A DNA stretch of 15,769 nucleotides from Methanobacteriota archaeon (GCA_043799545.1 JAZDNO010000007.1:1-15769), one strand, 5' to 3'. Positions 1 to 15,734 are shown, counted from the stretch's first letter. Notes: generated by a model from the letters alone, not told the origin. Numbers and translations: made by a program.

Positions 1-495
1 TTTGTCCGGCGCCATCAGGTTCGCGTCTATCATCGCGCTCGTCAGGTACGTCTGCCCGCCGTCGTACTGCTCGACGCTCTGGACAGTCGTGCCTGAGACA
101 TCACCCTTGAACATGGCGACCGTGTAGCCCGCATCGTCAGATGGGAAGCCAACCATGTTCCAGCCTGACTTCAGTGTTATCACGGTCGAGACGGGCTTGG
201 AGTACGTGGTTCCGCCCACGCATATCTGGCCGTCTCCGACCACCGTGACGTAGAGCCATACGCCCATCTTCGTGTCGACTGCCGTCAGGTCGTTCAAGGC
301 CGAATTCCAGGTTGTGTAGTACTGCTTCCACGGGTCGGTCAACGAGTTCGGATTGTACCACATCGCGCGGGTCCACTGGACCAAGCCAAGGCCGCCGTTC
401 CTGAGGTCTGTCAGAGCGCCCGGCATGGTTGTCGGTCCGGAGATGTTCACCGAAACGAAGTTCCAGCCGATGTGGTCCACGGTTATGTTCTGCCA
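1..495 (-). other. C-terminal two-repeat 'GWN' module of the minus-strand protease
   Basis: Internal repeat: HIGWNFVSVN (451-468) ... DPWKQYYTTWNSALNDLTAVDTKMGVWLYV ... ITLKSGWNMVGFPS (142-165) ... VEQYDGGQTYL. The module runs off the window edge. Confidence 0.7.
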
Positions 496-3400
496 CACGG
501 CGGACACGCTCGAAGCGGTCAGCGACGGGTGCACCCTGGACGGCGTGTCTGTGTTGTCGTATGCGAAGGTGAAGGTCGCAAACGGGTTGACGGTCGTTGT
601 CTGCACTCTCAGGTAGTCGACGCTGGACCCGCCCCTGGAACCGCTGTTGTAGACTCCCCAGAGGATTACGCCTCCGGAGATGTAGTCGCCCCAGTTGGAT
701 GCGATTGCCCTTGTCATCGTCTGTTCCACGTTGGCTGCGAAGGCTGTCGTTGCTCCGACCGTGTCCCACACCGACGTTGCGGAGTTGAAGGCATACATCG
801 TGCCAGTTCCGGCAACGGTGAACGAACCCTCGAAGGTCAGTGTTATGTCCGTAGCCAGGGCTGGGTTTGCCGCGGTGGCGAACGAGCACTTCACGAAGGT
901 CTCGTCTCCCACAGGCGGGTTGCCGCTAGGACCCGCCCTGATATCGTTGGATGTCGACGCTGCGGTGTAGTATGCGTCCGTGAACTCCGTGGCGCTGTTG
1001 GGCGTTGTCAGTTCAGCGTCTGCGTTGCTGTCGACCACGGTGAACCACACGTCGTGCGGCCCGCCTGCGGCCGTCGTTCCGGCTGTATCTAAGTCCTCGT
1101 ACAATGTGCCTCCGGTAACCGCGGTCACCTGTATCCACAGTTCGACATAGAACCTGCCGTTTGCGGCCATTGTCGTGCCTGCGGGCACAGTGTACTCCCA
1201 GTAGAACTCATGGTATGCGCCTGCGAAGTTCGCAATGTCCTCGTTGTCGTTGGTGGTCGTGAACTTCAGGGTTGGTACAGTGCCATTCTCGTACACCTTG
1301 GCGAACAGGAATCCGTTGGCTGTGGCCCTGTCTACCTGACCGTGTATCCAGAACTTCCACAAGCCGCCCATGTCCTGGCCGGCCACGTAGGTTCCAGATA
1401 TCCACTTCTGGCCCACCTGGTACGGTCCGACAGCGGACATCGCAACCGACGTCGATGTCTGAATCGCCACCTCGAATGGGTCGTTGTTGAGGTTCATTGC
1501 CCCTGCGAACGGGGACTGAACCTGGAACCACAGCAGCGCCTCTGCCAGGCAGCTCTTTTCAACGAGGTTGATCTCCTGCACCGGCGGGGCTCCGGAGTCG
1601 GTCGCGCGCACCACGTAGTAGTATGTCGTTCCCGGCGTCAGTGGGCCCGGGTCGGTCCATGTCAGCGTCGTGCCAACCTGGACTGCGGTCGAGGTCACGC
1701 CGGTAGCGATTGGCGAACCGAAGTTCTCGCCGCCGGGTGTCGTCGCCCTATATGCCTGATAGGTGATCGGGTATTCGCTCTGGTAGTCCTCGGCGCCAAG
1801 CCAGGTCAGCTTCAGGGTGGTTCCCGTGCCCGGGTTTGTGACTGAGACGAGCCCGTTGAATATCGGGTAGTCCGGGAAGTCGATGAAGGTCACGGTGAAC
1901 GCAGAGGGAGCTCCCCAGTTGTTCGCCGCATCCTGGCCGCGCACGTAGAATGTGTAGTCCTTGCCCAATGCAGTGCCCGTTATTCCGTATGTAGCCGGGG
2001 TCAAGGCGGCCGATGTCTGCACGCCCTCAGTCTGCGTCGGCGTCGCTTCGACCAGAACCATGTTGTACCATGTAACCTGATCGAGAGACCACTGGGCGGG
2101 AGTTGTTGCGTGTATCAGAGAGTTGCCCGTGTAAACGTCGGTGATGGTGGCGTAGAGGTTGAAGGTCTGGCCTGCGCTGATGTTCACGGGGTTCGGAGTC
2201 GCGCCGCCGTTGTAGGCCCTCGGCCCAACCGTGTCAGCTCCGCCGAGGTTGTCGAATTTGTACATGACGACGTCCCTCTCGAGCTGGTTGAGGCCGTTCG
2301 ACAGCCCCCAGTTCGTCGGCTGCGGGTTGGTCGGGTGCGTCAGGCTGATTTCGCCCTCGTTATCGTACATCGTCGTCCTGTCTCCGAAGACATAGGCGAT
2401 GTTGTCCCTTGCAAGCATCTTGTGGCATCTCCTGCCGGCGTTGTCAGCGGTGATGTTCTTGTATTTGACGGGGAAGTTGGTCGTGGTGTATCCGCTGGCG
2501 TACGCGCACCTGTAGTTGGCGTTGGCGGACATCGGCTGGGAATCGAAGAGCGCCCAGTTCCACGTGGTGTCCGCATAGGTGTCGGCCGCTCCGCCGTACC
2601 AGTACGTGTCCATGTACCCGATCCACATCGTTCCGTCCGCGGTCTTCGCGAGGCCGATTGGCAGGTTTTCCCCGGCGTAGTTGTTCCACCAGAGGGTGTT
2701 GGTGCCGTACGGTCCGAATATGTTCGACCAGGTCGTTCCGCCGTCCGTGGTGTATCGCACCCGGACCTGCATCACGTCGTAAACGTCCGTGGCGTCTCCT
2801 GGCGGCGGCTGCTCGTACCAGGCGAACCACACCTCGTTGCCGGTCGGCGGCACGTAGACGAATGGCTGGTTCTGGTCCTGGTCAGCGTTCGTGGGAAGGC
2901 CTATCGCCGTGCGGGTTCCGAAAGTGGGCGTGTCGTCCGTGGCATCCCAGCTTGTCCTCCAGACGACCCTCTGGTTGCCGTCTGTGCCGCCGGTCTGCGC
3001 GCACCTCCACACGAGCCACAGCCTGTTGCTGTTGTCCACTGTGCACATGTGCTGCCTGTCGTATCCCGTGGTAACCGCCGCTGGGGTCACGGTGCCTATC
3101 GCAGACCACGCAGTGCCGGTGGTCGACGTGAAGTAGCGGATATCTTCCGTTCCCGCAGGAGTGGAACCCAGGTCGTCCGGGATGATCGTCGGAAGCACCC
3201 ACCAGACATCCGTCGCCGCCCCTTCGGAGGTTGCGACGTCCACGCCGCTGATGCCTGCCTGGTCAAGGAAGGCCACGTCCGTATCGGTGTTGACGCACGT
3301 GAAGAGCAGGTTCTGCGTCCATGTGTCCGTCAGGTGATTGTAGTATGAGCACAGCAGCCACCAGCTACCGGCAGTGTATGCCGTGAGCACGTCGCCGTTG

Positions 3401-6330
3401 GCGCGGGCGCATACAGATATATCGTTGGGTTTCGTGAAGTAACCGGGGTCGCTGTTAGTGTCTGTTCCGGCCGGGAGAGCCCTTGGCGAGCTGGCCCTGC
3501 CGTTGTTCGGCCCGACCGCCGTCCACGTGGTTCCGCCGTCCAAGGACTTCTTCACAAAGACGCTCGACATCCCTTCAACGTTGGTGGAGTCAGCTCCGCC
3601 GTTCCAATACCTCTCGCCGCTTATGTATGCAACGTAGATTGCTTTCGTGTTTTTCTCGTAGAACACCTTCGTCGTCAACTGGTTGCCAGGCTCTTTCGCT
3701 ACAGGCTCCGGGTAAGATATCGCGGTGTCGATGACGTTCACCATCAGCGACAGCTGGTCCTTCTTCGTATTGTCTCCTGAAGACATAACGTTGAGGGTTA
3801 TGTTGAAGTCGTTCCTGGTGGTCGCCGGGGCTTTTATCGTCGCAACGCAGCCGTAGCTCGCCCCCGCCGGGAGGTTCGATACGCTCGCCGGGTTGAAGGT
3901 TATCGTCCAGCCTGCGGCTGCCACGCCGTTCGAGCTCACCACTGGGGCCGGGAATGTGAAGGAGTCCGTGACCTTCCCCTGGTTTCTCACGCTGAACGGG
4001 TATGTGATTATGCCCCCGGAGCGGATGTGATGGAAGTACTCGCCCGTCGAGGTCATCTTGACGTTGTTGTTCGTGTTCGTCTGTTTGGCAGTTCCGAGGT
4101 CTCCAGACCACACCAGGGCGAACGGGATTGGCCCGGAGTTCCAGGTGCGGATGTCGACCTTCACGGAGTACGTGCCCTTCTGCACAAACGGGGTGTTGAT
4201 GTAGACGTTCTCGAGGGTGTTCCTGTCATCGTAGCCGTCGTTGTTGTTGTCGTATCCCCAGCCTAGGCCCGTCGTCGGGTTCGGGTAAGCCCAGCTGTCC
4301 TTGAATATGTTGCCGTGGTACTGGGTTCCGTCCGGAGCCGTGACAATCAGGTCAAGGTCGTTCCGGATGGTGACCGCGCTGCCGACCGCTCCCGGGCTCG
4401 GGTCCGCCCAGACGAGCGTAATCCTCAATGGCACCCTGGTGTTTACGACGGGGATGTTGAAGTTGTACTCAGAGGTGCTCGCCGTGAGCAGTGAGTTACG
4501 GTCCTCGAAGTAGTCCCAGCTCCTCGGCGCGGTCGGGAACAGCGAGTTCCTCACGTTTACCTGCCCCCAGCCCTGAGCGTAGCTTGGAACGCCTTCGCCG
4601 ACGTCGTCCGCGCCGTTGATCAATGTCGCCTTCATGAGCGACATCGACGGGCTCGCTATGCCCCTTATTTCATTGTAGTATTGTCTAACAAGCATCGCGC
4701 ATCCGGCGACTACCGGTGTCGCGCAGGACGTGCCTCCGAACCACGTGTAGACCCCGTTGGGCCCGTATGGAACGTAGTCCGCCGTTGGCGCGCCCGCCGA
4801 GCGAACAGAGTAAACGAACGTCCCTGGCGCGGCTATGTCCGGCTTTATCCTCTCGTCGTCCGCCGGTCCGCGGCTGCTCCAGCTGACTATGCCGTGTCCA
4901 CCGGAGGTCTCCGTTCCGTTCATCGGGGCGTCGTTGTTCGACGCCGCGACGCACAGGCCGTTCTTCATGGCCCATCCGACACCGTACGGTCCGGGTATGT
5001 CGCCGGGCGTGTACTGCGGCGTGTCGCCGGAGTTGTGCGCGGCGTAGCACGGGATTGCGTCCCAGGCGGTTCCCCAGATGTATGCGTCGATTCCAGCCGA
5101 TTCGCTTCCGTACGTTCCATCAGCAGAGTTCCATCCGGAGCTCGATGAGAATACGCGGAACCGGACTGTCGTGTCGGTTGTGTAAGTGTACTGCGTGTCG
5201 TGGTAGAGTTCCGCGTCCTGGGTGGACGTGGCGGACATATAAATCTTGGCCTCAGGTGCGGTCCCGGGGTTCCCCCTGTCGTACCTGTTCAGCTCGTTCG
5301 GGGGCAGAAGCTCTCCATGGACGCTCAGCCAGTTGTATCCGTTGCCTGCCGCTGCGCCAGTGCACCCCGTTCCGTGTCCGTCGGTATCGCCGCCGCCGCC
5401 CGCGACTATGCGGTTGACGCCCGCCTGCGGACCAGTCGAGAAGTCCTGGCGCGTCCCGTCAAGCCCCGAGTCGGATATTCCCAGGCCCTGGTACGTGTTG
5501 GTGCCAGCGCCGGCGGTGTACCCGGTCAATGGGACCGAAAGGCCGCTCCTGTCGACATCCCACGCATCGGCTGCGTTTAGAAGCTCGGTGCTCTGCTTGT
5601 TAAAATACTTCACTGTCGGGCTCTCGTCGGTGACGAGGGCAATCTCCTGGATGTTAAGAATCTGCGGCATTATTGACATGTCGATGTAGCAGTAGATGAA
5701 GGGGTTGTCCCTCTTCTCCGGGTTTGTCAAGCTGTCCTGCTCAATCTTGACTTCCCTTGCACCCAGTGCCGCAAGCTTGTCGGCGACGTCAATGACGCTC
5801 TCGCCCTTGAAAAGCCAGACGCACCAGTAGTGCTCCCCGGTCCAATCCTGGTTCTTCGCCGGCAGCTTGTAGCCAGGCTCCACCAGGCCGACCCACTGAA
5901 CGAGTGGGGAAGATTCGACCTTCGCCTTCGTGTTGCCGTTCATCTTGACAACGTAGGCGTTCTCGTGAACGTATTCGTTGTCGAGAACCTTGGCACCAAA
6001 CGAGCGGATGTGGTCCCTCATGCTGTCCGTGACGGTCTCCTTGAACTGCACGATGTAGTACACATCCTGTTTCGGGTCAATCCCGCTCGCTTTGTATCCT
6101 GCTTTCACAGCTGGCTCGCCTTTCGCCGTGTCGAAATCACCGTTCCGCAAAAACAGCCTGGTGTCAGGCGCGTTGTTTGCTCCCACGACCGGAAGGTCGT
6201 CGGTCAGGACGACGTTGCTATTGTCGTGTGTCCCGAGTCCGATGGTAGCGATCAAGCCAGACAAGGCCATCGCCAATGCGAGCGCGATAGCCAAAACTTG
6301 GCCCACCCTTCGATTTTCACCCTTGCCCAT
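1..6330 (-). CDS. Giant secreted multidomain S8 (subtilisin-like, Kp43-type) serine protease, at least 2110 aa, 3'-truncated by the window edge
   Basis: I read the minus frame codon by codon from ATG at 6330 to position 1 and found no stop. An in-frame TGA lies just upstream (6343-6345) and GTGAGGAGG precedes the ATG. The N-terminus MGKGENRRVGQVLAIALALAMALSGLIATIGLG is a signal peptide. The prodomain contains YYIVQF. Catalytic motifs are GISDSGLDG (D287), DGHGTGCTG (H319), YAAHNSG (N433), SSRGPADDERIKPDIAAPG and FGGTSCATPVVAGCAMLVRQYY (S535). These are followed by PSMSLMKATLINGADD, QGWGQVN, ITLVWADP and NDLDLIVTAPDGTQYHGN, typical of Kp43-like subtilases. Confidence 0.96.
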   Translation of the reverse strand, partial: MGKGENRRVGQVLAIALALAMALSGLIATIGLGTHDNSNVVLTDDLPVVGANNAPDTRLFLRNGDFDTAKGEPAVKAGYKASGIDPKQDVYYIVQFKETVTDSMRDHIRSFGAKVLDNEYVHENAYVVKMNGNTKAKVESSPLVQWVGLVEPGYKLPAKNQDWTGEHYWCVWLFKGESVIDVADKLAALGAREVKIEQDSLTNPEKRDNPFIYCYIDMSIMPQILNIQEIALVTDESPTVKYFNKQSTELLNAADAWDVDRSGLSVPLTGYTAGAGTNTYQGLGISDSGLDGTRQDFSTGPQAGVNRIVAGGGGDTDGHGTGCTGAAAGNGYNWLSVHGELLPPNELNRYDRGNPGTAPEAKIYMSATSTQDAELYHDTQYTYTTDTTVRFRVFSSSSGWNSADGTYGSESAGIDAYIWGTAWDAIPCYAAHNSGDTPQYTPGDIPGPYGVGWAMKNGLCVAASNNDAPMNGTETSGGHGIVSWSSRGPADDERIKPDIAAPGTFVYSVRSAGAPTADYVPYGPNGVYTWFGGTSCATPVVAGCAMLVRQYYNEIRGIASPSMSLMKATLINGADDVGEGVPSYAQGWGQVNVRNSLFPTAPRSWDYFEDRNSLLTASTSEYNFNIPVVNTRVPLRITLVWADPSPGAVGSAVTIRNDLDLIVTAPDGTQYHGNIFKDSWAYPNPTTGLGWGYDNNNDGYDDRNTLENVYINTPFVQKGTYSVKVDIRTWNSGPIPFALVWSGDLGTAKQTNTNNNVKMTSTGEYFHHIRSGGIITYPFSVRNQGKVTDSFTFPAPVVSSNGVAAAGWTITFNPASVSNLPAGASYGCVATIKAPATTRNDFNITLNVMSSGDNTKKDQLSLMVNVIDTAISYPEPVAKEPGNQLTTKVFYEKNTKAIYVAYISGERYWNGGADSTNVEGMSSVFVKKSLDGGTTWTAVGPNNGRASSPRALPAGTDTNSDPGYFTKPNDISVCARANGDVLTAYTAGSWWLLCSYYNHLTDTWTQNLLFTCVNTDTDVAFLDQAGISGVDVATSEGAATDVWWVLPTIIPDDLGSTPAGTEDIRYFTSTTGTAWSAIGTVTPAAVTTGYDRQHMCTVDNSNRLWLVWRCAQTGGTDGNQRVVWRTSWDATDDTPTFGTRTAIGLPTNADQDQNQPFVYVPPTGNEVWFAWYEQPPPGDATDVYDVMQVRVRYTTDGGTTWSNIFGPYGTNTLWWNNYAGENLPIGLAKTADGTMWIGYMDTYWYGGAADTYADTTWNWALFDSQPMSANANYRCAYASGYTTTNFPVKYKNITADNAGRRCHKMLARDNIAYVFGDRTTMYDNEGEISLTHPTNPQPTNWGLSNGLNQLERDVVMYKFDNLGGADTVGPRAYNGGATPNPVNISAGQTFNLYATITDVYTGNSLIHATTPAQWSLDQVTWYNMVLVEATPTQTEGVQTSAALTPATYGITGTALGKDYTFYVRGQDAANNWGAPSAFTVTFIDFPDYPIFNGLVSVTNPGTGTTLKLTWLGAEDYQSEYPITYQAYRATTPGGENFGSPIATGVTSTAVQVGTTLTWTDPGPLTPGTTYYYVVRATDSGAPPVQEINLVEKSCLAEALLWFQVQSPFAGAMNLNNDPFEVAIQTSTSVAMSAVGPYQVGQKWISGTYVAGQDMGGLWKFWIHGQVDRATANGFLFAKVYENGTVPTLKFTTTNDNEDIANFAGAYHEFYWEYTVPAGTTMAANGRFYVELWIQVTAVTGGTLYEDLDTAGTTAAGGPHDVWFTVVDSNADAELTTPNSATEFTDAYYTAASTSNDIRAGPSGNPPVGDETFVKCSFATAANPALATDITLTFEGSFTVAGTGTMYAFNSATSVWDTVGATTAFAANVEQTMTRAIASNWGDYISGGVILWGVYNSGSRGGSSVDYLRVQTTTVNPFATFTFAYDNTDTPSRVHPSLTASSVSAVWQNITVDHIGWNFVSVNISGPTTMPGALTDLRNGGLGLVQWTRAMWYNPNSLTDPWKQYYTTWNSALNDLTAVDTKMGVWLYVTVVGDGQICVGGTTYSKPVSTVITLKSGWNMVGFPSDDAGYTVAMFKGDVSGTTVQSVEQYDGGQTYLTSAMIDANLMAPDK
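1540..1870 (-). other. Fibronectin type III domain within the minus-strand protease
   Basis: TLKLTWLGAED...ITYQAYRATTPGGENFGSP...TWTDPGPLTPGTTYYYVVRATD matches the FN3 pattern (early Trp, L-x-PGT-x-Y-x-Y-x-V-x-A). Confidence 0.85.
2250..3720 (-). other. BNR/Asp-box (sialidase-like) beta-propeller region within the minus-strand protease
   Basis: Asp-box motifs KSLDGGTTW (3523-3546) and YTTDGGTTW (2728-2751), a degenerate FTSTTGTAW (~3106-3132), and repeated x-W-x-x-W/Y blade strands (RLWLVWR, EVWFAWYE, TMWIGYMD). Boundaries are approximate. Confidence 0.7.
3730..4050 (-). other. Ig-like beta-sandwich (NEW3/CARDB-like) after the protease's jelly-roll domain
   Basis: ITYPFSVRNQGKVTDSFTF...GWTITFNPASVSNLPAGASYGCVATIKAPA...ITLNVMSSGDNTKKDQLSLMVNV. 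The family assignment is by motif resemblance only. Confidence 0.6.
4090..5560 (-). other. S8 catalytic domain plus C-terminal PPC/P-domain-like jelly-roll of the minus-strand protease
   Basis: Catalytic codons are Asp 5470-5472, His 5374-5376, oxyanion Asn 5032-5034 and Ser 4726-4728. The D-to-H spacing is 32 aa, as in subtilisin BPN'. Confidence 0.93.
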
Positions 6331-6336
6331 TTTTTT

Positions 6337-6346
6337 CCCTCCTCAC
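6337..6346 (-). promoter_or_regulatory. Shine-Dalgarno-like site for the minus-strand protease
   Basis: The minus strand reads GTGAGGAGGGAAAAAA-ATG. Confidence 0.7.
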
Positions 6347-6442
6347 ATTCTCGTCTCGAAAATTTTATCAACTCAGGTGACATTTCACTGCATTGACAAA
6401 TCCTGAATGATTAATTTGAGACAACTAGCGATATGATGATAC

Positions 6443-6460
6443 TATTATAATTAGTTTTAT
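6443..6460 (-). promoter_or_regulatory. Candidate BRE/TATA for the minus-strand protease
   Basis: The minus strand reads ATAAAACTAA-TTATAATA about 110 nt upstream of the ATG. Other AT-rich candidates exist in the spacer. Confidence 0.4.
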
Positions 6461-6480
6461 GTTTCCGTATATATCTCATT

Positions 6481-6504
6481 ATAAAAACATATAAATATGT
6501 CTTT
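6481..6504. promoter_or_regulatory. Candidate BRE/TATA (ATATAAAT) for the plus-strand gene, embedded in a dyad-symmetric element
   Basis: ATAAAAAC-ATATAAATATGTCTTT. The arms ACATAT/ATATGT are a perfect inverted repeat, and the minus strand reads TTTATATG. Confidence 0.55.
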
Positions 6505-6573
6505 TCCACTCTCCAACCATCGTCCTCAATTCCATCATGCCCATTATAATGTTGGGGGGGATGTAGACTCGAA

Positions 6574-6581
6574 TGAGGGAG
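6574..6581 (+). promoter_or_regulatory. Shine-Dalgarno-like site for the 2767-aa gene
   Basis: TGAGGGAG, 4 nt before ATG 6586. Confidence 0.6.
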
Positions 6582-6585
6582 AAAT

Positions 6586-9500
6586 ATGCTCGAATTGAAG
6601 AATAGATACGCCGCGATGATTTTGGCCTGCCTGGTAATCGTCTCTGGATTATCGATTGGCATCGGCCACTCATCGACCCCGTCAAACGACCGCACGACAG
6701 AATCCGATGTGCTGCACCCCTTGGACCGCCCTCAACAGGTTGCCGGGATTGATATGGACCAAGAAACGGCTATTGAAACTATGCCCAAGTCGGCCCTGTC
6801 GCTTCCCAGCGGTGAGTTCGTGACCGTCGTGGTTGCCACGAAGGATGCCGGCGAGTTGGCGAGATTCCTCTCGAAATACAGTTACTCAGGCAATATCGGC
6901 TCCAGGAGCGATGGTGCTGGCTCTTTGGCCACGCCTGTCTTGACCGTGCCTTCCGAATCGATAGAGGGGATATCCTCCCTTCCGTCCACTATGGGTGTTT
7001 ACGAATACCAGCCGAAGGTAAAGCAACCGGTCCTCCCTCCGTCCAAAACCGACTTTGTCGGGCCGGTGGGAGGCATCAACAGCGTAGATTTCGATCAAGG
7101 CATCGTGCAGCACCACAACGCGGACGATGCCTGGGCAGCGGGCATCACCGGAAGCGGCGTCAAAGTTGCAGTCGCCGATTCAGGTGTGGACTTTGCCACG
7201 CCGGACCTGTTCGGGTCGCAGGCGACCTTCGACGTTTCCAAGGTGAAAGCGGATATCCTCGCAAATAAATCATACTTAAAAGAATACGACGGGTGGCCCA
7301 TCGCCTTCGACGAATCGTCCATGGAGAACTACCTTGCGAAGAAGGGCGATGCGACGGGAACCTGGTACGCGGACACCTCTGCGAGACGCACCCCCATCCC
7401 TCTCAAGGTTTTTGACAGCACGAAAACCATCACTGTCGACGGAAACCCTGCTGATTGGAGCAGCGCGGACCTTGTGGCTTCGGACCCGAGCGGAGACATG
7501 ACGGACGTCCGCTACGACGTCACCTCACTCTACGCATTGAGGAACTCCGCGACCGCCATCTGGAACTTCGGATTTGACGTGATGGGGACCACGAATGTGA
7601 ATGTCACATACAATTTGGCGATAGACACAGACATGGCTCCGGGCCAGGGGGCGACGAAAGACCCTTTGGGCCGCCCTGTGCGGTTCGCGGACGGGTGCCT
7701 CCCGGATAAAATGATCACGGTCACGCATACCCCCTCCGATACCTTCGAGAACGCATGGTTCTATCAGTGGAACGGGGCGGAATGGGACATGACCGCCAGT
7801 TATTCGTTTGACTTGCTGTTCTTTGCAGAATATGCCTACAATCCTGCGCTCAAATTCGCAGAGTTCGGCGTGATAGGCGATCAATCAGGCGGTTCGTTCA
7901 GGGACCAATTCTCGTTGCCCACGGACAAGATACAGGTAATCCTGTACACAGCAAGCGAAACCAGCCATGCGCAGGACACCGTTCCCTCGGACCCTGCCGT
8001 TATATATACAACGCCGGATTTGACCGCCTCAATAACGAAATTGTCGACGCCCGTTACCTTATCCCCATACCCGGCGAGCTACATCCAATACGGCACGAAC
8101 ATTTACAACGTGACGGGCATAACAAGCATATCCGGGATTTACCACATCGGATACCACCCGGACAAGAACATGCAAACGGAATTGTTCTCCGGCAAGGCCA
8201 TGGCAATCCTCGCTGTCGATGCCGTCGTGAGCGGGGAATACGACACGGTATACGTTGATATGTCTGGAGATGTTGGCTTTTCACCCGGGGATATGGACGC
8301 AAGCTTCTCAAACGAAAAGCCCTGCACCCGGGACGACCCCGTTGCGTACTACGACAGCTACAACTTCGCGAGTGACACCGCGGACTACAGCAAGTGGAAC
8401 ACCGGTGACGGGATTCCAGACCTGTCGGGAGGGATGATATACTTCATCGGCAACTCAACGGAAGTGAAGAATGAATGGGTGGTAACTCCCACGGAGAACG
8501 GCACCAACACCGCCAAGCTGGCACATGGCAACATCTCAACTCCGGACGAGTGCGTGCTTTACAAGAACGGCGCGAAATGGGAATTCACCGAAGTCACAGG
8601 AGAGATGGTCATCGTGGCCGCAGGCGGCGAGAAAAAGGCTAAACTTGACTACAAGAACGTGGCGACGGGAACTTTAGTGCTTTTCGGGAGCAACATTTCA
8701 GTGAAGAACGATTTGCTCTTCGAGCAGGGCTCCACTGTATCCAACACGATATTGCTGAAGCGCAAAGGCGTTACCGCGTTCAACACGTTCGACCTTTACT
8801 ACAAGCCAAAGAACGAGTCGCAGCCCCGACGGGAGATGGCCGGCTCCGAATACCAGATCCTTTACGACATGGGCATAAAAACCTGGAAGCTAATATTAAC
8901 AGGTACCTTCTTTGAAGGTGATCAGTACTTTGCATACTACAACTTCACAGGCACGATGGTCGATGGCGTGGATTATGACAAAGACCTATCCAAGGGAGAC
9001 ATCTTACTCACGGAGCCTCTGATAGCGAGGACGATCATCACTGCGGATTACTGGTGGAGGCCTTACGTCGTGGATTTATTGAGCGGCAATCTCACATTCA
9101 CCTTCTATCTGAAAATAGGGGACAACATCACGGCGACATACCAGTATGGCACCACCCCAATACCGTACTCAGACTCTTATTGCAAGCGCTTGGGGCTCGA
9201 CAACTATTACCCGGGGAAGGGCAATGTCGTCGCGCTCATAGGGGAGTTTGACAGGACAGTGGACGAGAATTTAGAAGATATAGGCGAACTCCACGGTACG
9301 CTGTGCGCGTCCGCGATTGCCGGAGGGAGCTCTAGCTCGCAACTGTACGTCAACTCCGTCTTCAAGGGCGCATTCAATCAGCCAAAAGGCATCGCGCCGG
9401 ATTGCGACATCATCGCGATAGCCAACATATACAAAACCGAGGGGTACGAATTCTGGTACTTCTCAGTCGAAGGCTACGACGGGGCGCCAGGCACCGGCGA

Positions 9501-12500
9501 CGAGGCGAACATCGTCAGCAACAGCTTCGGCCAGAGCAAGACCTACAACGACGGCTGGGATTTCGAGTCTCGTCTCATCGACTATCTGACCATGGACTAC
9601 GCGAAGGGCCAGACGGTGTTCACCGTATCGGCAGGCAACGAAGGTTACGGTTATGGAACCGTTACAGCTCCAGCATCGTCGCCAGGCGTCATATCGGCCG
9701 GTGCGGCCACGGACATGTACTACCGGTTGCTTCTCAACGAAGACGGCGGAGAGAATCCCATGTTCGGCGATGTCTCGCCGTTCTCCGGGCGCGGACCAGG
9801 CGGGATGGGGACGCCGGACCCGGACGTCATAGCCATCGGCGACAAAGCGGTTGGGAGCTTGCCCCTGTACCTGGCCAACTCCGACGGGAAGCGGGCCATC
9901 TCGATATGGGAGGGCACCGACATCGCAGCCCCGATTGCAGCCGGTACGTTGGCGTTGGTATACCAGGCGTACGCCCAAAAACACAGCGGGAAATACCCCA
10001 CCGCCCTCGAGGCTCATGCCATACTGAAGTCGACCGCCGACAACATCAACTACGACATCTTCAGCCAGGGCGCTGGATTCATCAACGCCGACAGGGCGAC
10101 AAACGCAGCCCTCGGGACCGACGGTCTCGTCGTCTCGCCATCCTCGTGGGTGCCTGGAACGTACCAGGGCGCGAAGACGGACGTATTCACAAACGTCATG
10201 CAGCCCGGAACGAGCAACATCACAACAATCCAGGTCGCCAACTGCGACCTGGTTTCGGATGCGACAGCGAACGTCCACGACGACATCTTCAAGAAGATCG
10301 GCACTTACGAATACACATGGGGTACTGGCGGCCAGCTGAACAACAAGAACGAGTCCTGGGAGGTCGTCAACCGAGACAGCCTGGGTCAGAACGCGAGCTA
10401 CTGGGACCAAGCGCAGATGGTCAAGGTGACCGCACACATCAACTCCATGGACATGGATCCCTCTAACGACCTATATCCCGACTCTGGATACTACATGCGG
10501 TTGTTCAATTGGGAGGATCTGAACGGAAACGGGGTGCCTGACCAGGACTGGACGGACGGCACCGGCTACACGCACGTCGCCCACGGCGAGAGGAACCAGA
10601 TTGCATTCAGCGAAGGCCGGAACATCATGGAGACCATCGTCCACGACCCGAACCAGAGGATCGCCACGGGATTGCTCGTCAGCATTATACCGGATGGTTC
10701 CAACATCCAATGGCTCAACTTCACAGTCAGCGTAGACTTCTACATGCGCGTAGACTGGAGCTGGTTGAACGTACAGAATTCCCTGATCGTCCCCGCGGGA
10801 ACGACGAGGGGTCTTCCTTTGACAATCACGGTCCCGAGCAATGCCGGTATAGGGACATACGAAGGGGCAGTCTACCTCGACCACGACGCGCAGACCGTTT
10901 CAGACGAAGTGGTCTACAACGCATCCATGCACCCAACGTACACGGAAAAAGTGTACAACACGACGAACCGCATCGCCAATCTGTCTCAGGGGGATTTCAC
11001 AGGGCTGGAACTCTACAAGCACAAGGCCGGCTCTTTCAACTCCCTCACCAACAAAAGCGTGTTCAACAACGATAGCGTAGCATATAGCCCAACTGGAACC
11101 GAGGTCACTCCTTGGGGATTTTTCCTACCGCTACCGTATGGAGAGATAATCAATACTACTTTTCTGGCGTTCTTCATACCTGGCGATACCGTGTATGATG
11201 CATTGGAAATTGCGGACTTTACCGTAGATCTCACGACAGGATACGTAGAATTCACGGATCCCAATTGGGACGACCCGCTAAACAACAACGGGATATCGGA
11301 ATTTTATGCGTGGTACGAATATGCAGACGTCACCTCGGCATACACGCCAGATGGAAGCGAGGTCGCGCCTTGGGGATTCTACCTTCCTCTTCCTTATGGG
11401 GAGATTACAAACTACACTTATCTGGCATACAATATACCTGGCGACAACATATACAACGCAACAAGTATCGCTAATTATACCGTGAACCTCACAACAGGAT
11501 TTGTGGAGTTTACAAGCGCTTTGTGGAACGACCCGCTCAATAACTATGGCATAACAGAATTTTATGCATGGTACGAATATGGCGTCAGTGCATTGCTGCC
11601 TTCCGTCAACTATACGTTTTATCCGGCAAACGGGACAATAATCTTGAGTGCTGCTGACGCTCTACAGCCCGGCAATTACCTCACTGCTGTGAGGTGGAAC
11701 ATACCAACAAGCGCTTTGGGCCACGGAAATGTCATTCTCGGAACCTGCATCGTCTCGGCCAACGGCATAGCGCTCAACATCAACCAATTCTCAATAACCC
11801 CGTCCACGGGCGTCATAACATTCAGCAACCTCGATCACGAAACGACGCTAATAACTGCGACCTACAATTACTACGCGCACACCGTAACAATCCCCGTCGC
11901 AGTCACCGTAAGCACCGTTGGCAGCGACTTCCGTCTCGGAGGACCGACAACGATATCGCAGGACCTTTACAACAACAGCCAAATGGGCGGAGGCGCTTGG
12001 GACCTGACCGACGGTGGGGACTGGCGCATATACTACGTCTATATCCCCCAGCAGGGTCTTTTCGTCAAGGGAGACGGGTACAAGCTAATAGTCGATGTCT
12101 CATGGCGTGCGATACCAACCGATATTGAGATATTCATTTACGGGGCGGGCGAGGGGGATGAATTCAGCACCTCGAACCCGGACAGGTACGGGCCGTACAC
12201 GCTTGCTGACGTCGGCAAGAGCCAGATGCCGTCCGGCTCCCAAGGGTTCTACACTACGACGGGCGGGAACGAGGAAATAATCACTGGCCAGCTTAAGGGC
12301 GGTTTGAACCTAATCGTTTTGCATTGCACCAACATCAACGGCACCAAGACGAGCGAAGAGTTCTCGGGGGTCGGCGGATGGATTTCCACTAGCTCCGCAA
12401 AGGTCGAGGCCCGCACGAGGGAAATAAAAGGCAACGTCTCGATGACCATGAGAAGCAGCATGAGCTGGCCCTTAGGAAGCAAGGCTTCCATTCTTGGACC

Positions 12501-14889
12501 AGCATCGGCCGAGAAATTCTACGACCAGGAGGTCTGGCAGGAGAGACAGAAGGACATGGACGCCCAAGACGCTTCAGTCACATTCAGAGATTACATGTAC
12601 ACTTTGCGTTTCTCCAGCTACCAGAAAGTCATCACGATAGCCAAGGCTTCCACCTTGGAAGTGAAGATATGGGGCGACCCCAGCGACGACCTGGACCTGG
12701 CGGTCTTCTATGATGTGAATGAGAACGGGGTCTGTGACGACCCGAAGGAGGTCGTCAGGAGCGGCGATTACGGCATCGGAGTGGAGACCTATTGCGACTG
12801 GTCCATGGGCGGATATGCCGGATGCGCGGACGGAGACAGCAACGAGGGCCTCAAGCTAATCCTCCCGCCTGACGGGCAGTATATCATCGCAGTCTATGGC
12901 TGGGGTGTAAAGACAGGAGGGTTGGAGGGCGAAGGGAGCCCGGCCCACTTTGACATGGATATCAGCATGATAGTCGCGGGCGTGGAGGGATACGAGCTAT
13001 CCGGCGGTCCAGGAGCGGACCTGGATTCCAAGAAGAGCAGCTACATGTCGAACGAGTCCACAACTGCTTACTTGCCCCAGACATTCACGGTGCTGTGGAA
13101 CTTCCCAGCCGATGCCACAGACGGAGAATACAGCGGCATGATGTACCTCGGGCCCGCGAACGTGCAGGATGGAATACTCGCGATTCTGGTCAATGTAATA
13201 CTGGACAGGGAAGCGCCGGTCCTGAAGGACCCGACCCCGGCGGAGTACACCATCACAAACAATCCCACGCCCTGGATAACTTGCAACCTGGAGGACGTGG
13301 AGCGCGGTGAAATCGACGTGAATTCCATCGCCATATCCGTGGATGGCACCGACGTGACGCACATCGCGAACATCGCAGTGCCGTTCGTCGCGGATGGCGG
13401 CGGCACAGGCTATCCCAGGGGATCGATTGTTTACACCCCCTACAAGCCGTTGACTGACGGAGGCCACCGTGTGGACTTCTCCTTCAGCGACTGGGCCGGC
13501 AACGTCGAGACCGACACCTGGCTGTTCACCGTCGACAGGTTCGCCCCTTCGATAAAGATACTGTCGCCAAACAAAGAAACGACTGTCACTGGCGAAAACG
13601 AAATATCGATTCTCGGGATGACGGACAGCAACGCCGAAGTCAGCATCTATTGCGGGGCGGTACAAGTTGTCCCGAAGCTTCAGCCCAATGGCACATTTAC
13701 GGCCACCGCGCCCCTTGTCGAGGGCGAGAACGAGGTGAGGGTCATCTCGAAGGATAAAGCGGGAAACGAGGGAGTCGAAACCTTCTCCGTCATCTGGGAC
13801 AACAGCGTACCGAGGATAACATCCGCGATTTCCTCTGTGGGTTCAATGACAAATGCAGAAACGGCGGTCATTTCCGGCAAGGTCAGCCAGGACGGCACGC
13901 TGGCCATCAACGGCAACATGGTCAATGTCATGAAGGGAGACCTGTCATTCGAAAGCCTCGTGGCGTTGTCTGAAGGACAAAACGTGATAAGACTCGACTT
14001 CGTTGATCTCAAGGGATTCGAGACTACCACATGGAAGAACATCACCAGGGACACCATCGCGCCTGAGGTGACCCTCAGGTCGCCCACGGGATATGTCTAC
14101 AGCAGAACATACAACGTGACTGGTTCGGCAGACGGCGCCTCAAGCGTATTCGTCAACGGCAAGACGGCGATTCTTACCGGAGACAACTTCGGCAAGGAAG
14201 TCGTGCTGAGCAACGGAGCGAACACCATCGTGGTCGAGTGCCGGGATTCTGCGGGAAACTCCGAGTTCCGCACCATTTCCGTGAGCTACCTGCCGACCCC
14301 GACAAACTGGGGGGCTATCGGGCTGATGATCGGACTGCTCGCGATTGGCCTAATCGTAGGAGTCGTCATGTGGATGTTCTTAGGTCCCAAGGGCGAGAAG
14401 GCTCCAGTCCCTGGGGAGGAAGGCGCGATAGCGACCGGGGAAGAGCCTGCGTCGGAGACCGCGGCGGATTCTGGAGACGTGCCGCCCGAGGGAGCGGATG
14501 AAGTGCCGCCCGTAGAACCCGAAACGGAGGCAATCCAACAAATCGAGGAGCCCGCGCTGGATGACGGACAAAAGGTCGCCGAGGCCGAGGAAATCGAGTT
14601 CCCGACAGAGAGTGCGACAACCGACCTGCCGCCCATACCCGCGGAGGAATCGATGCCGGAGGAGCTGCCTGCTCCCGAAATCGCACCGGAACCGGCCGCA
14701 GAGGCCGCCCCAGCGCCGGAGCCTGCGCCAGCCCCCGAACCGAAGCCGGCGCCCGAGCCTGCACCGCCCGTGCAGCCGAAGGCGTCCCTGGCGAACGAGG
14801 AGAAGATTGCCCGTCTGAAGAAGGCGCTCGAAAGCGGCAAGATATCCCAGGAGATGTACGACCTGAACCTGAAGAAGCTCCAGGGCTAG
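6586..14889 (+). CDS. Giant membrane-anchored S8 subtilase homologue (pyrolysin-like large-insert type), predicted catalytically inactive (nucleophile Ser->Asp), 2767 aa
   Basis: The signal peptide is MLELKNRYAAMILACLVIVSGLSIG. S8 motifs are VAVADSGVD (D198, 7177-7179), LHGTLCASAIAG (H903, 9292-9294), IVSNSFG, VSAGNEG (N1018), FSGRGP, PDVIAIG, WEGTDIAAPIAAGTLAL (Asp1112 at the Ser position, 9919-9921) and QGAGFINA. The C-terminus has Ig-like repeats, a TM helix and an acidic tail. Confidence 0.96.
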   Translation: MLELKNRYAAMILACLVIVSGLSIGIGHSSTPSNDRTTESDVLHPLDRPQQVAGIDMDQETAIETMPKSALSLPSGEFVTVVVATKDAGELARFLSKYSYSGNIGSRSDGAGSLATPVLTVPSESIEGISSLPSTMGVYEYQPKVKQPVLPPSKTDFVGPVGGINSVDFDQGIVQHHNADDAWAAGITGSGVKVAVADSGVDFATPDLFGSQATFDVSKVKADILANKSYLKEYDGWPIAFDESSMENYLAKKGDATGTWYADTSARRTPIPLKVFDSTKTITVDGNPADWSSADLVASDPSGDMTDVRYDVTSLYALRNSATAIWNFGFDVMGTTNVNVTYNLAIDTDMAPGQGATKDPLGRPVRFADGCLPDKMITVTHTPSDTFENAWFYQWNGAEWDMTASYSFDLLFFAEYAYNPALKFAEFGVIGDQSGGSFRDQFSLPTDKIQVILYTASETSHAQDTVPSDPAVIYTTPDLTASITKLSTPVTLSPYPASYIQYGTNIYNVTGITSISGIYHIGYHPDKNMQTELFSGKAMAILAVDAVVSGEYDTVYVDMSGDVGFSPGDMDASFSNEKPCTRDDPVAYYDSYNFASDTADYSKWNTGDGIPDLSGGMIYFIGNSTEVKNEWVVTPTENGTNTAKLAHGNISTPDECVLYKNGAKWEFTEVTGEMVIVAAGGEKKAKLDYKNVATGTLVLFGSNISVKNDLLFEQGSTVSNTILLKRKGVTAFNTFDLYYKPKNESQPRREMAGSEYQILYDMGIKTWKLILTGTFFEGDQYFAYYNFTGTMVDGVDYDKDLSKGDILLTEPLIARTIITADYWWRPYVVDLLSGNLTFTFYLKIGDNITATYQYGTTPIPYSDSYCKRLGLDNYYPGKGNVVALIGEFDRTVDENLEDIGELHGTLCASAIAGGSSSSQLYVNSVFKGAFNQPKGIAPDCDIIAIANIYKTEGYEFWYFSVEGYDGAPGTGDEANIVSNSFGQSKTYNDGWDFESRLIDYLTMDYAKGQTVFTVSAGNEGYGYGTVTAPASSPGVISAGAATDMYYRLLLNEDGGENPMFGDVSPFSGRGPGGMGTPDPDVIAIGDKAVGSLPLYLANSDGKRAISIWEGTDIAAPIAAGTLALVYQAYAQKHSGKYPTALEAHAILKSTADNINYDIFSQGAGFINADRATNAALGTDGLVVSPSSWVPGTYQGAKTDVFTNVMQPGTSNITTIQVANCDLVSDATANVHDDIFKKIGTYEYTWGTGGQLNNKNESWEVVNRDSLGQNASYWDQAQMVKVTAHINSMDMDPSNDLYPDSGYYMRLFNWEDLNGNGVPDQDWTDGTGYTHVAHGERNQIAFSEGRNIMETIVHDPNQRIATGLLVSIIPDGSNIQWLNFTVSVDFYMRVDWSWLNVQNSLIVPAGTTRGLPLTITVPSNAGIGTYEGAVYLDHDAQTVSDEVVYNASMHPTYTEKVYNTTNRIANLSQGDFTGLELYKHKAGSFNSLTNKSVFNNDSVAYSPTGTEVTPWGFFLPLPYGEIINTTFLAFFIPGDTVYDALEIADFTVDLTTGYVEFTDPNWDDPLNNNGISEFYAWYEYADVTSAYTPDGSEVAPWGFYLPLPYGEITNYTYLAYNIPGDNIYNATSIANYTVNLTTGFVEFTSALWNDPLNNYGITEFYAWYEYGVSALLPSVNYTFYPANGTIILSAADALQPGNYLTAVRWNIPTSALGHGNVILGTCIVSANGIALNINQFSITPSTGVITFSNLDHETTLITATYNYYAHTVTIPVAVTVSTVGSDFRLGGPTTISQDLYNNSQMGGGAWDLTDGGDWRIYYVYIPQQGLFVKGDGYKLIVDVSWRAIPTDIEIFIYGAGEGDEFSTSNPDRYGPYTLADVGKSQMPSGSQGFYTTTGGNEEIITGQLKGGLNLIVLHCTNINGTKTSEEFSGVGGWISTSSAKVEARTREIKGNVSMTMRSSMSWPLGSKASILGPASAEKFYDQEVWQERQKDMDAQDASVTFRDYMYTLRFSSYQKVITIAKASTLEVKIWGDPSDDLDLAVFYDVNENGVCDDPKEVVRSGDYGIGVETYCDWSMGGYAGCADGDSNEGLKLILPPDGQYIIAVYGWGVKTGGLEGEGSPAHFDMDISMIVAGVEGYELSGGPGADLDSKKSSYMSNESTTAYLPQTFTVLWNFPADATDGEYSGMMYLGPANVQDGILAILVNVILDREAPVLKDPTPAEYTITNNPTPWITCNLEDVERGEIDVNSIAISVDGTDVTHIANIAVPFVADGGGTGYPRGSIVYTPYKPLTDGGHRVDFSFSDWAGNVETDTWLFTVDRFAPSIKILSPNKETTVTGENEISILGMTDSNAEVSIYCGAVQVVPKLQPNGTFTATAPLVEGENEVRVISKDKAGNEGVETFSVIWDNSVPRITSAISSVGSMTNAETAVISGKVSQDGTLAINGNMVNVMKGDLSFESLVALSEGQNVIRLDFVDLKGFETTTWKNITRDTIAPEVTLRSPTGYVYSRTYNVTGSADGASSVFVNGKTAILTGDNFGKEVVLSNGANTIVVECRDSAGNSEFRTISVSYLPTPTNWGAIGLMIGLLAIGLIVGVVMWMFLGPKGEKAPVPGEEGAIATGEEPASETAADSGDVPPEGADEVPPVEPETEAIQQIEEPALDDGQKVAEAEEIEFPTESATTDLPPIPAEESMPEELPAPEIAPEPAAEAAPAPEPAPAPEPKPAPEPAPPVQPKASLANEEKIARLKKALESGKISQEMYDLNLKKLQG
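7426..8061 (+). other. DOMON/CBM9-like beta-sandwich inserted within the S8 domain
   Basis: ITVDGNPADWSSADLVASDPSGD...DVTSLYALRN...WNFGFDV...YNLAIDTD...G...FAEFGV...F has the 'iDG...dW...D..gD...Di..l.......l.f......y.l.iDtD' pattern of DOMON-like ligand-binding domains. The assignment is by motif resemblance. Confidence 0.6.
11080..11580 (+). repeat. Intragenic tandem duplication, 258-nt (86-aa) period, two 81-aa copies (11080-11322 and 11338-11580)
   Basis: AYSPTGTEVTPWGFFLPLPYGEI...EFYAWYEY versus AYTPDGSEVAPWGFYLPLPYGEI...EFYAWYEY. Hand alignment is ungapped with 56/81 identical residues. Confidence 0.95.
13204..14292 (+). repeat. Four tandem Ig-like stalk domains (glucodextranase domain-B-like)
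   Basis: Each begins D-x-x-x-P: DREAP (13204), DRFAP (13534), DNSVP (13798), DTIAP (14050). Shared features are L-x-x-G-x-N/H-x-[IV] and D-x-x-G-N/F motifs. Confidence 0.8.
14308..14382 (+). other. C-terminal transmembrane helix
   Basis: WGAIGLMIGLLAIGLIVGVVMWMFL, 25 uncharged residues followed by GPKGEK. Confidence 0.9.
14668..14769 (+). repeat. Pro/Ala/Glu low-complexity repeats (PAPEP-like) in the cytoplasmic tail
   Basis: PAPEIAPEPAAEAAPAPEPAPAPEPKPAPEPAPP. Confidence 0.9.
14794..14886 (+). other. SHOCT-like short C-terminal helical domain
   Basis: NEEKIARLKKALESGKISQEMYDLNLKKLQG fits the SHOCT pattern (L-x-x-L-x-x-G-x-I-[ST]-x-E-x-[FY]). Confidence 0.75.
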
Positions 14890-15127: not shown

Positions 15128-15526
15128 CTACTTTTTCTTTTTCCCCATCAGGTAGATTATCGCCTCGGCGGGCTCCCCGCCGGACTCGATTAAGGCTGCG
15201 CGCGCCTCCTCCTCCGAGACGTTCGCCTGCCCGGCAACCAGCTCCACGTCCTCCTGGTTGACGCTCGGCCCGGACTGGGCGGGCACCGATGACTGTCCGC
15301 CCCCGGAGCCGCGCTCCCGCACTTCCTCGCCTTCGCCCGCGATTTGGTAGGTCTTCTGGCCCTTCATCGAAACCACAGTGACCTGCGGAGCCAGGACGAC
15401 GATGTCCTTGTCCTTCGTGCGGATGATGACCTCGTCGACGTCCTTCATCTCGGTGGTCTCGATACCCATCCGCTTCATCGCCATCTGCATCTGGCGCGGG
15501 TTAACTCCTCGCATACCTGGCATCAT
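15128..15526 (-). CDS. nac: Nascent polypeptide-associated complex protein (archaeal NAC), 132 aa
   Basis: MMPGMRGVNPRQMQMAMKRMGIETTEMKDVDEVIIRT...TYQIAG is the NAC domain, and VNQEDVELVAGQANVSEEEARAALIESGGEPAEAIIYL is the UBA-like domain. The true start is the ATG-ATG at 15526, not 15682. Confidence 0.96.
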   Translation of the reverse strand: MMPGMRGVNPRQMQMAMKRMGIETTEMKDVDEVIIRTKDKDIVVLAPQVTVVSMKGQKTYQIAGEGEEVRERGSGGGQSSVPAQSGPSVNQEDVELVAGQANVSEEEARAALIESGGEPAEAIIYLMGKKKK

Positions 15527-15556
15527 CGTATCGCTTCGAGTGTAAAGGTTGACGGC

Positions 15557-15570
15557 ATTTAACGGTTGCT
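15557..15570 (-). promoter_or_regulatory. Candidate BRE/TATA for nac
   Basis: The minus strand reads AGCAACCG-TTAAAT about 31 nt upstream of ATG 15526, consistent with a nearly leaderless transcript. Confidence 0.5.
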
Positions 15571-15734
15571 GTCGAGCCATACTAGAGGTTGAAAAATGGG
15601 TTATTGATAATGCAGCCTGGCCCACGGGCCATGTACGGTCGAGGCGAGCTGGCGAGGGCGAGCCTTTTGGGATACCATACAACTTTTCCGCGAGCCCGAG
15701 CCGGAGAGCCTAGGCAGGAAAAGGGGTTGAGCGG

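Follow-up and report, generated by a model that had tools for sequence, protein, structure and literature searches.

A conserved divergent gene pair in Thermoplasmata archaea encodes a secreted subtilase of active type and a membrane-anchored pseudo-subtilase

The locus

The window analysed here, a stretch of 15.8 kb, is the whole of contig C14 in the genome of an uncultured Thermoplasmata archaeon (2.06 Mb, 94% complete). Two long open reading frames, here called A and B, run outward on opposite strands from a 255-bp spacer at positions 6331-6585. Gene A (1-6330, minus strand) encodes a secreted subtilase that is predicted to be active and has no membrane anchor; gene B (6586-14889, plus strand) encodes a membrane-anchored pseudo-subtilase of 2767 residues. 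Both assignments were made from the open reading frames and their translations, from Pfam matches to the S8 family, and from alignment with the KP-43 protease for A and with Vpr for B.

The G+C content of the spacer is 35%, as against about 60% within the two genes. Several TATA-like boxes are found in it, and a Shine-Dalgarno-like GGAGG or GAGGG lies ahead of each start codon. The spacer is thus a putative control region shared by the divergent genes. Its promoter function is suggested by these features, and co-regulation of A and B from such a short AT-rich stretch with TATA-like boxes is plausible. The only other gene, beyond B, is a small one at 15128-15682 on the minus strand, whose sequence looks, by eye, like that of the alpha subunit of the nascent-polypeptide-associated complex; this housekeeping gene stands outside the A/B pair.

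Gene A

The S8 domain of A was recognised by Pfam (PF00082, E 3.9e-25). Its catalytic domain, residues 250-600 (4531-5583, minus strand), aligns with the KP-43 protease 1wmd (E 3e-34) with all four catalytic residues in register: D287 (codon 5470-5472), H319 (5374-5376), N433 (5032-5034) and S535 (4726-4728), all on the minus strand. The Asp, His and Ser occur in the S8 order together with the oxyanion Asn, each within its own motif, and the four residues are kept in 24 paired A homologues. By its fold and its catalytic residues, A is predicted to be a subtilase of the active type. The 1wmd alignment runs on through an L-V-W-A-D segment, covering a beta-sandwich that follows the S8 domain as in KP-43 (residues 601-745; 4096-4530, minus strand). 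The likeness to the KP-43-type high-molecular-mass subtilisins comprises the catalytic domain with all its catalytic residues and this beta-sandwich, whereas A is five times longer than they are and has in addition a propeller-like region, Ig/Fn3-like modules and an uncharacterised C-terminal domain.

The middle region of A (2311-3723, minus strand) carries two Asp-box (BNR) motifs, at residues 929 and 1194, with a weak Pfam BNR match, and is probably a propeller. It varies among the A homologues and is common neither to the A protein of a second pair in the same genome, on contig C23, nor to an A-like protease on contig C4. The modules found downstream in A are CARDB-like, an Asp-box region and Ig/Fn3-like, followed by a tryptophan-rich C-terminal domain (CTD). 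The N-terminus is hydrophobic and signal-like, and no second hydrophobic helix was seen beyond it in A; full-length homologues likewise have no membrane helix.

Gene A runs off the contig after 2110 visible residues. The same 141 bp stand at the left ends of contigs C14 and C23 and at the start of contig C17. This assembly fork arises from the near-identical 3' ends of the A paralogues, and both A genes are truncated at contig ends because of it. C17 extends A by only 16 residues before a stop codon. A therefore has about 2126 residues and no C-terminal anchor helix. The length of at least 2110 residues given by the sequence-only reading, on which this study follows up, was correct as a minimum, and the overlap with C17 shows that it was nearly the complete protein.

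The CTD covers residues 1940-2110 in the window (1-513, minus strand), its final 16 residues lying off the contig. It is a domain of about 180 residues with conserved tryptophans and two G-W-N motifs, and its fold was predicted with a pLDDT of 94.8. About 26 copies occur in the genome, nearly always as the last 175-186 residues of large secreted proteins (among them those of loci L118-L136). No Pfam family was found for it. Foldseek gave no match to a solved structure with an E of 0.001 or less, VIA scored highest against small RCK-C domains but with a Z of 5.7 that lies in the range of noise, and the matches in a protein atlas were to unnamed archaeal clusters only. In one pseudo-B paralogue of a relative (L034:1992-10316, the same as L074) the membrane helix and tail are absent and the protein ends in a CTD instead, which suggests that the CTD is an alternative means of retention at the surface. 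The CTD is thus a candidate surface-retention module that probably holds A at the cell. With about 26 proteins carrying it, a receptor for the CTD, should there be one, is unlikely to be dedicated to the A/B pair.

We also compared the two A proteins of the genome with the unpaired protease, and no region emerged that could be a pair-specific interface: the C-terminal third is common to the unpaired protease, and the two A proteins have different middle regions. The C-terminal part is the fastest-evolving portion of A. Together with the generic nature of the CTD, this argues against a specific contact between the tail of A and B.

Gene B

B begins with a signal-like N-terminus (signal peptide), and its S8 match in Pfam is to PF00082 (E 4.4e-26). 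All features of this gene lie on the plus strand. A propeptide-like beta-alpha domain (residues 78-140; 6817-7005) was modelled in blocks with pLDDT 85-94 and aligns with the N-termini of active B-type relatives. Asp198 is present with its D-S-G motif (codon 7177-7179) and is separated by 704 residues from H903 (9292-9294); between the Asp and His segments lies a beta-rich insert in the model (residues 216-860; 7231-9165), at the place where relatives have a WD40 propeller. The pseudo-catalytic core comprises residues 861-1200 (9166-10185) and includes, besides H903, the retained N1018 (9637-9639). At the nucleophile position it has D1112 (9919-9921), so that B reads G-T-D where Bacillus Vpr (8jmw) reads G-T-S. 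Because the nucleophile serine of the G-T-S-x-A-x-P motif is absent, B was filed as a pseudo-subtilase and not as a peptidase. The Asp codon, GAC, is at least two substitutions away from any serine codon (e.g. AGC or TCC). A sequencing error behind G-T-D was considered and rejected, since two base changes would be needed and the same pattern is seen family-wide.

A model of residues 31-1225 (pLDDT 76, pTM 0.73) contained a subtilase core, and the top Foldseek matches of this core were all subtilases, with probability 1.00. Vpr was the sole sequence match of B among solved structures. In its fold and in its very large insert between Asp and His, B resembles the pyrolysin-group S8A subtilases such as Vpr and tripeptidyl peptidase II; those enzymes are active, whereas B is a type-I membrane protein without the serine.

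Two parts of B, residues 650-850 and 1450-1750, consist of repeated beta modules of low G+C content with dense N-x-S/T sequons. The first is absent in all eight active relatives compared and is common only to pseudo-B proteins. The second (10933-11835; G+C 0.49, 30-35 sequons per 1000 residues) was found in none of the eight active and in 4-8 of 11 pseudo relatives. We also noticed that this stretch is asparagine-rich and includes a clear internal duplication of about 80 residues. Other pseudo-B proteins have a right-handed beta-helix in the corresponding region, and the accessory domains of the group vary between WD40, beta-helix and repeated modules.

The core is followed by beta-sandwich regions. 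Towards the C-terminus, B has an Ig-like stalk (13393-14301; three Glucodextran_B and one Big_13 match in Pfam), a transmembrane helix found by a hydropathy scan (residues 2575-2599; 14308-14382) and followed by Lys residues, and an acidic, proline-rich cytoplasmic tail of 168 residues (14383-14886). The helix is kept in 15 of the 17 B homologues examined. The tail ends in a 30-residue motif (14797-14886; …G-K-I-S-x-E-L/M-Y-x-x-N-L…), which is conserved in both pseudo and active B-type proteins and occurs in one to three copies in B-type proteins of several orders. By eye it is SHOCT-like, with no match in Pfam. Pfam gave no match in the insert or in the tail, where in particular no signalling domain was found. 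B-type enzymes that are active and unpaired have the stalk, helix, acidic tail and terminal motif as well, so that these are inherited features and not adaptations to A.

The sequence-only reading had described two very large S8 genes diverging from a 255-bp spacer, one with a full D/H/S triad and no transmembrane helix in its visible part, the other with Ser replaced by Asp, an Ig stalk, a membrane anchor and a cytoplasmic tail. The open reading frames, the Pfam matches and the sequence itself agree with the first point, the 1wmd alignment and the C-terminus completed from C17 with the description of A, and the Vpr alignment, Pfam and hydropathy with that of B. It had also held that the two belong to different S8 subtypes and are not a simple case of duplication and decay; this stands as well, A being KP-43-like and B Vpr/pyrolysin-like.

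Occurrence of the pair in other genomes

Each protein was searched against 40 related genomes, and the coordinates of the A and B matches interleaved. Twenty regions were fetched and their layout was judged wherever both ends were present. At 20 loci, which come from 16 related genomes, a gene of the A type (about 2000 residues) and one of the B type (about 3000 residues) diverge from a spacer of 100-944 bp with 24-52% G+C. These pairs span all four families of the order and include one genome of another order in the class; the genome of the window has its second pair on contig C23, and overall the divergent arrangement was found at more than 40 loci. Conservation of the divergent synteny in relatives, which had been proposed earlier as a check, therefore held across the order and beyond, and it supports the view that the A/B pair is a conserved unit and not a chance neighbourhood.

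The serine was missing in all 21 paired B proteins, with D in its place in 6, E in 4, A in 6 and G in 4, and also V and W. Many paired B proteins are in addition without the Asp, His or Asn, whereas G-T-S is intact in every paired A protein.

A scan of one genome per species, with a six-row B alignment as the query, gave 73 more loci of the B type, which belong to Thermoplasmata, Thermococcus and a few Chloroflexota bins. About half of them keep the His, the Asn and G-T-S. The active B-type subtilases in the Chloroflexota (Anaerolineae) bins are those of loci L102, L103, L105, L107, L109 and L112; they could reflect inter-domain transfer or mis-binning. Two other active B-type relatives from the protein database, P0026 and P0055, have precomputed Pfam matches to dockerin (PF00404) and cohesin (PF00963).

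The survey comprised 81 B-type cores, for which a divergent A gene was scored within 3.5 kb; 16 loci could not be judged, the contig end being too close. Among the B genes that have lost the serine, 28 had a divergent A gene within this distance and 3 did not, while among those that keep it, a single one (L061) had a divergent A gene and 32 had none; this association of serine loss with pairing rests on one or two evolutionary events, with 1-2 contrasts in an independent-contrast test, and the counts carry no statistical weight alone. An A-like protease also occurs unpaired, on contig C4, and three serine-less B genes have no A gene nearby, so neither partner is strictly dependent on adjacency.

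Phylogeny and selection

In a tree of the 81 B cores, 39 serine-less proteins formed one clade with a support of 97. B of the window fell just outside this clade in the unconstrained tree, with weak support; a tree that places it inside had a higher likelihood and was not rejected (p-AU 0.62). For 25 pairs the trees of the two partners were compared. At its deepest split (support 99), the A tree matched the clade of the partner B exactly, with one change, and none of 500 shuffles gave a number as low. The A and B subclades match too, and both clades coexist in single genomes. Congruent trees and the presence of both clades in single genomes indicate that the pair was duplicated as a unit and that its members have co-diverged since. 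A and B of the window each represent a third, early-branching lineage.

It was also found that the core block has the lowest dN of B in four of four homologue comparisons. In the one comparison with unsaturated dS, the dN/dS of the core was 0.08, as against 0.11-0.22 elsewhere in B. It follows that B is not decaying and that its dead domain is its most constrained part.

Acidic residues dominate at the nucleophile position. Among 31 serine-less matches from the protein database, D was present in 20 and E in 1, and among the paired B proteins D or E was found in 10 of 21; the change needs at least two substitutions. One may ask from this whether B is not dead at all, and whether Asp or Glu together with the retained His and Asp performs a different chemistry. 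A large sister clade with Ala, Gly, Trp or Val at this position, in which the His and Asp are lost, is equally conserved and paired, and we know of no subtilase with an Asp nucleophile. We consider an altered chemistry highly improbable.

When 40 active and 40 serine-less cores were compared, the positions conserved in the former and relaxed in the latter included the catalytic His, the Ser and the Ser-x-Gly strand that binds the substrate backbone. B of the window is the least decayed of the serine-less proteins: it keeps all such columns except the nucleophile and two others, and the substrate strand is among those kept. Its closest relatives by sequence are active enzymes (47-53% identity). 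In a search of 5.8 billion proteins the best match reached 47-49% identity, the top matches all kept the serine, and no close orthologue was present.

Retention of the Asp, His, Asn and substrate strand without the nucleophile is the pattern of a binder that is unable to cleave. B might thus be a regulator or sensor: it would bind an extracellular ligand or substrate and either control the activation of A or signal inward through its tail motif. Its chain crosses the membrane and has the conserved 30-residue motif at its end, and there is a precedent in Clostridioides difficile, where a signalling heterodimer of CspC and CspA acts upstream of the active CspB (PMC12880746, PMC7200643). The tail and its motif are, however, also found in active unpaired B-type proteins and hence did not evolve to regulate A, Pfam finds no signalling domain in the tail, and the cleft residues are lost in most pseudo-B proteins. 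Such a role for B seems to us rather unlikely.

The propeptide raises another possibility, namely that B is mainly a substrate of A: unable to remove its propeptide itself, it would be matured in trans. The propeptide-like domain of B in the window is confidently folded in the model, and the STABLE protease has been proposed to cleave the precursor of tetrabrachion (PMC5744192). In several clade-II pseudo-B proteins, however, the Asp motif lies about 70 residues closer to the N-terminus and the propeptide may be reduced, in which case the need for such cleavage would not be general. Moreover, CspC-type pseudoproteases function with an uncleaved prodomain. Maturation in trans would be possible for B of the window, judging from the model, but is unlikely as the general reason for pairing, and we give little credence to the idea that B serves chiefly as a substrate.

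B of the window groups with L061 with moderate support. At this locus (L061:1-14767) there is a B gene that keeps the serine; a gene of the A type lies on the opposite strand, 3.2 kb upstream, and the two small genes in between, a PQQ-propeller gene and an unknown gene, are unrelated. L061 is a possible intermediate, paired but still of the active type, and this order of states suggests that pairing may have come first and that catalysis was lost afterwards.

Distribution of sequons

The two partners differ in their content of N-x-S/T sequons. In the window, A (1-6330) has 7 sequons against 23.5 expected, an observed/expected ratio of 0.30, and B (6586-14310) has 34 against 23.3 expected (1.46). 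Across the pairs, which were taken from loci L025-L108, the median ratio was 0.245 for A and 1.43 for B, and the ratio of B was higher than that of A in 24 of 24 pairs. Sequons are not generally depleted in the other CTD-bearing proteins of the genome. One reading of this asymmetry is that a glycan-shielded scaffold stands beside an unglycosylated protease.

The abundance of sequons also bears on whether A and B work together at all. With its Ig-like stalk, helix and tail, a sequon-rich B resembles an archaeal surface glycoprotein. It could be a glycosylated coat protein or adhesin and A a nutritional exoprotease, the two being co-regulated yet independent, with their adjacency due to a shared bidirectional regulatory region. 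The variability of the accessory domains in pseudo-B proteins, the relaxed substrate-binding strand in most of them and the existence of unpaired A-like and B-like genes all agree with such independence. On the other hand, the dead core is the most constrained part of B, which is unexpected for a mere coat protein, and the adjacency has persisted through order-level divergence and duplication of the whole unit, with matching trees, which exceeds the linkage usual for shared regulation. Independence of the two proteins is therefore possible, but we doubt it.

Discussion

We are inclined, by a small measure, to regard A and B as a conserved two-gene cell-surface module in which A would be the catalytic and B the non-catalytic, membrane-fixed partner. 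Their functional coupling appears well supported by the comparative data, while co-expression, contact between A and B and a binding target for B are what we infer from it. The architectures are complementary, a membrane helix and tail being present in B and neither of them in A. A would be the working enzyme, a KP-43-like, anchor-free protein exported by a Sec-type signal and kept at the surface probably by its CTD. B would descend from a membrane-anchored active ancestor of the pyrolysin/Vpr type, having lost the serine and kept the fold, stalk, helix and tail. With catalysis supplied by A, B could have been retained as a non-catalytic, glycosylated, membrane-fixed partner that, through its dead catalytic domain, positions proteolysis, binds something for it or controls it. 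A scaffold fits better than a substrate receptor, because most paired B proteins have a relaxed substrate-binding strand, B of the window being the exception.

A stronger version of this module can be put forward only tentatively. The pair might form an obligate heteromeric surface protease, whose dead, glycan-coated, membrane-fixed subunit would capture or dock the sequon-free A, or substrates, in its preserved cleft without cleaving them, and may report occupancy to the cytoplasm through the tail motif. The arrangement would date from the point at which a second protease rendered catalysis by the ancestral anchored enzyme superfluous, and L061 may be an intermediate on this path.

The A/B pair is a form of a known theme, that of an enzyme with a dead, paralogue-like partner. 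Partnerships between a pseudoenzyme and an active relative are well known in eukaryotic signalling, and there is one bacterial case, Csp. To our knowledge, hardly any have been described from archaea or from cell surfaces. In C. difficile, the active CspB and the pseudoproteases CspA and CspC act in one pathway (PMC12880746, PMC7200643). Both systems have active and dead subtilases encoded together; the A and B genes are linked and co-inherited, and the dead members of the Csp system are conserved and functional. The Csp proteins, however, are small, soluble proteins of bacterial spores encoded on the same strand (cspBA-cspC), and their pseudoproteases bind each other and not CspB, whereas A and B are giant archaeal surface proteins of two S8 subtypes, encoded by divergent genes, and one of them is anchored in the membrane. 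A and B do not form a same-strand operon of the Csp type, which serves spore germination in Clostridia, and the likeness would be one in the way of working rather than membership of that system.

A second parallel is the tetrabrachion of Staphylothermus marinus, an archaeal surface scaffold to which the STABLE protease of the subtilisin family is bound non-covalently; nutrition of the cell and processing of the scaffold have both been proposed as tasks of this protease (PMC5744192). There the scaffold is an S-layer protein of coiled-coil type that has no protease fold, whereas the candidate scaffold B is a dead subtilase with an Ig-like stalk. No coiled-coil stalk was seen in B within the modelled residues 31-1225, in which long helices occur in the S8 core only, and the Pfam matches of the stalk are Ig-like.

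An analogy with the cellulosome had been drawn earlier. It applies only to the idea of an anchored non-catalytic protein that organises secreted enzymes sharing a C-terminal module. In the literal sense it is not supported, as Pfam finds neither cohesin nor dockerin (PF00404, PF00963) in A or B at E up to 1 on sub-regions.

A full-text search of the literature gave no paper on dead subtilases in archaea and none on the A/B pair. The pair is confirmed as real and conserved, and it seems to be undescribed. The present analysis adds the co-phylogeny, the selection profile, the control set of active unpaired enzymes, the possible intermediate, the completed C-terminus of A, the sequon asymmetry and the model of the CTD, which is itself a further uncharacterised surface module. 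Within the uncultured Thermoplasmata of sediment and groundwater, a widespread group that presumably draws part of its nutrition from detrital protein, the pair has a long history, has been duplicated and is under strong constraint. If A and B were one machine, they would show how wall-less archaea organise extracellular proteolysis. They would also provide a natural series from enzyme to scaffold, in which active unpaired proteins, an active paired one, loss of the nucleophile only and full decay would be the successive states.

We also noticed a 3013-residue paralogue, encoded at L140:4831-13869 on contig C9 of genome G003, with a strong A-type core but with G-S-D-G at the site of the oxyanion Asn. 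It keeps G-T-S within an altered motif, has no adjoining B gene, and may be another A-type protein drifting from catalysis.
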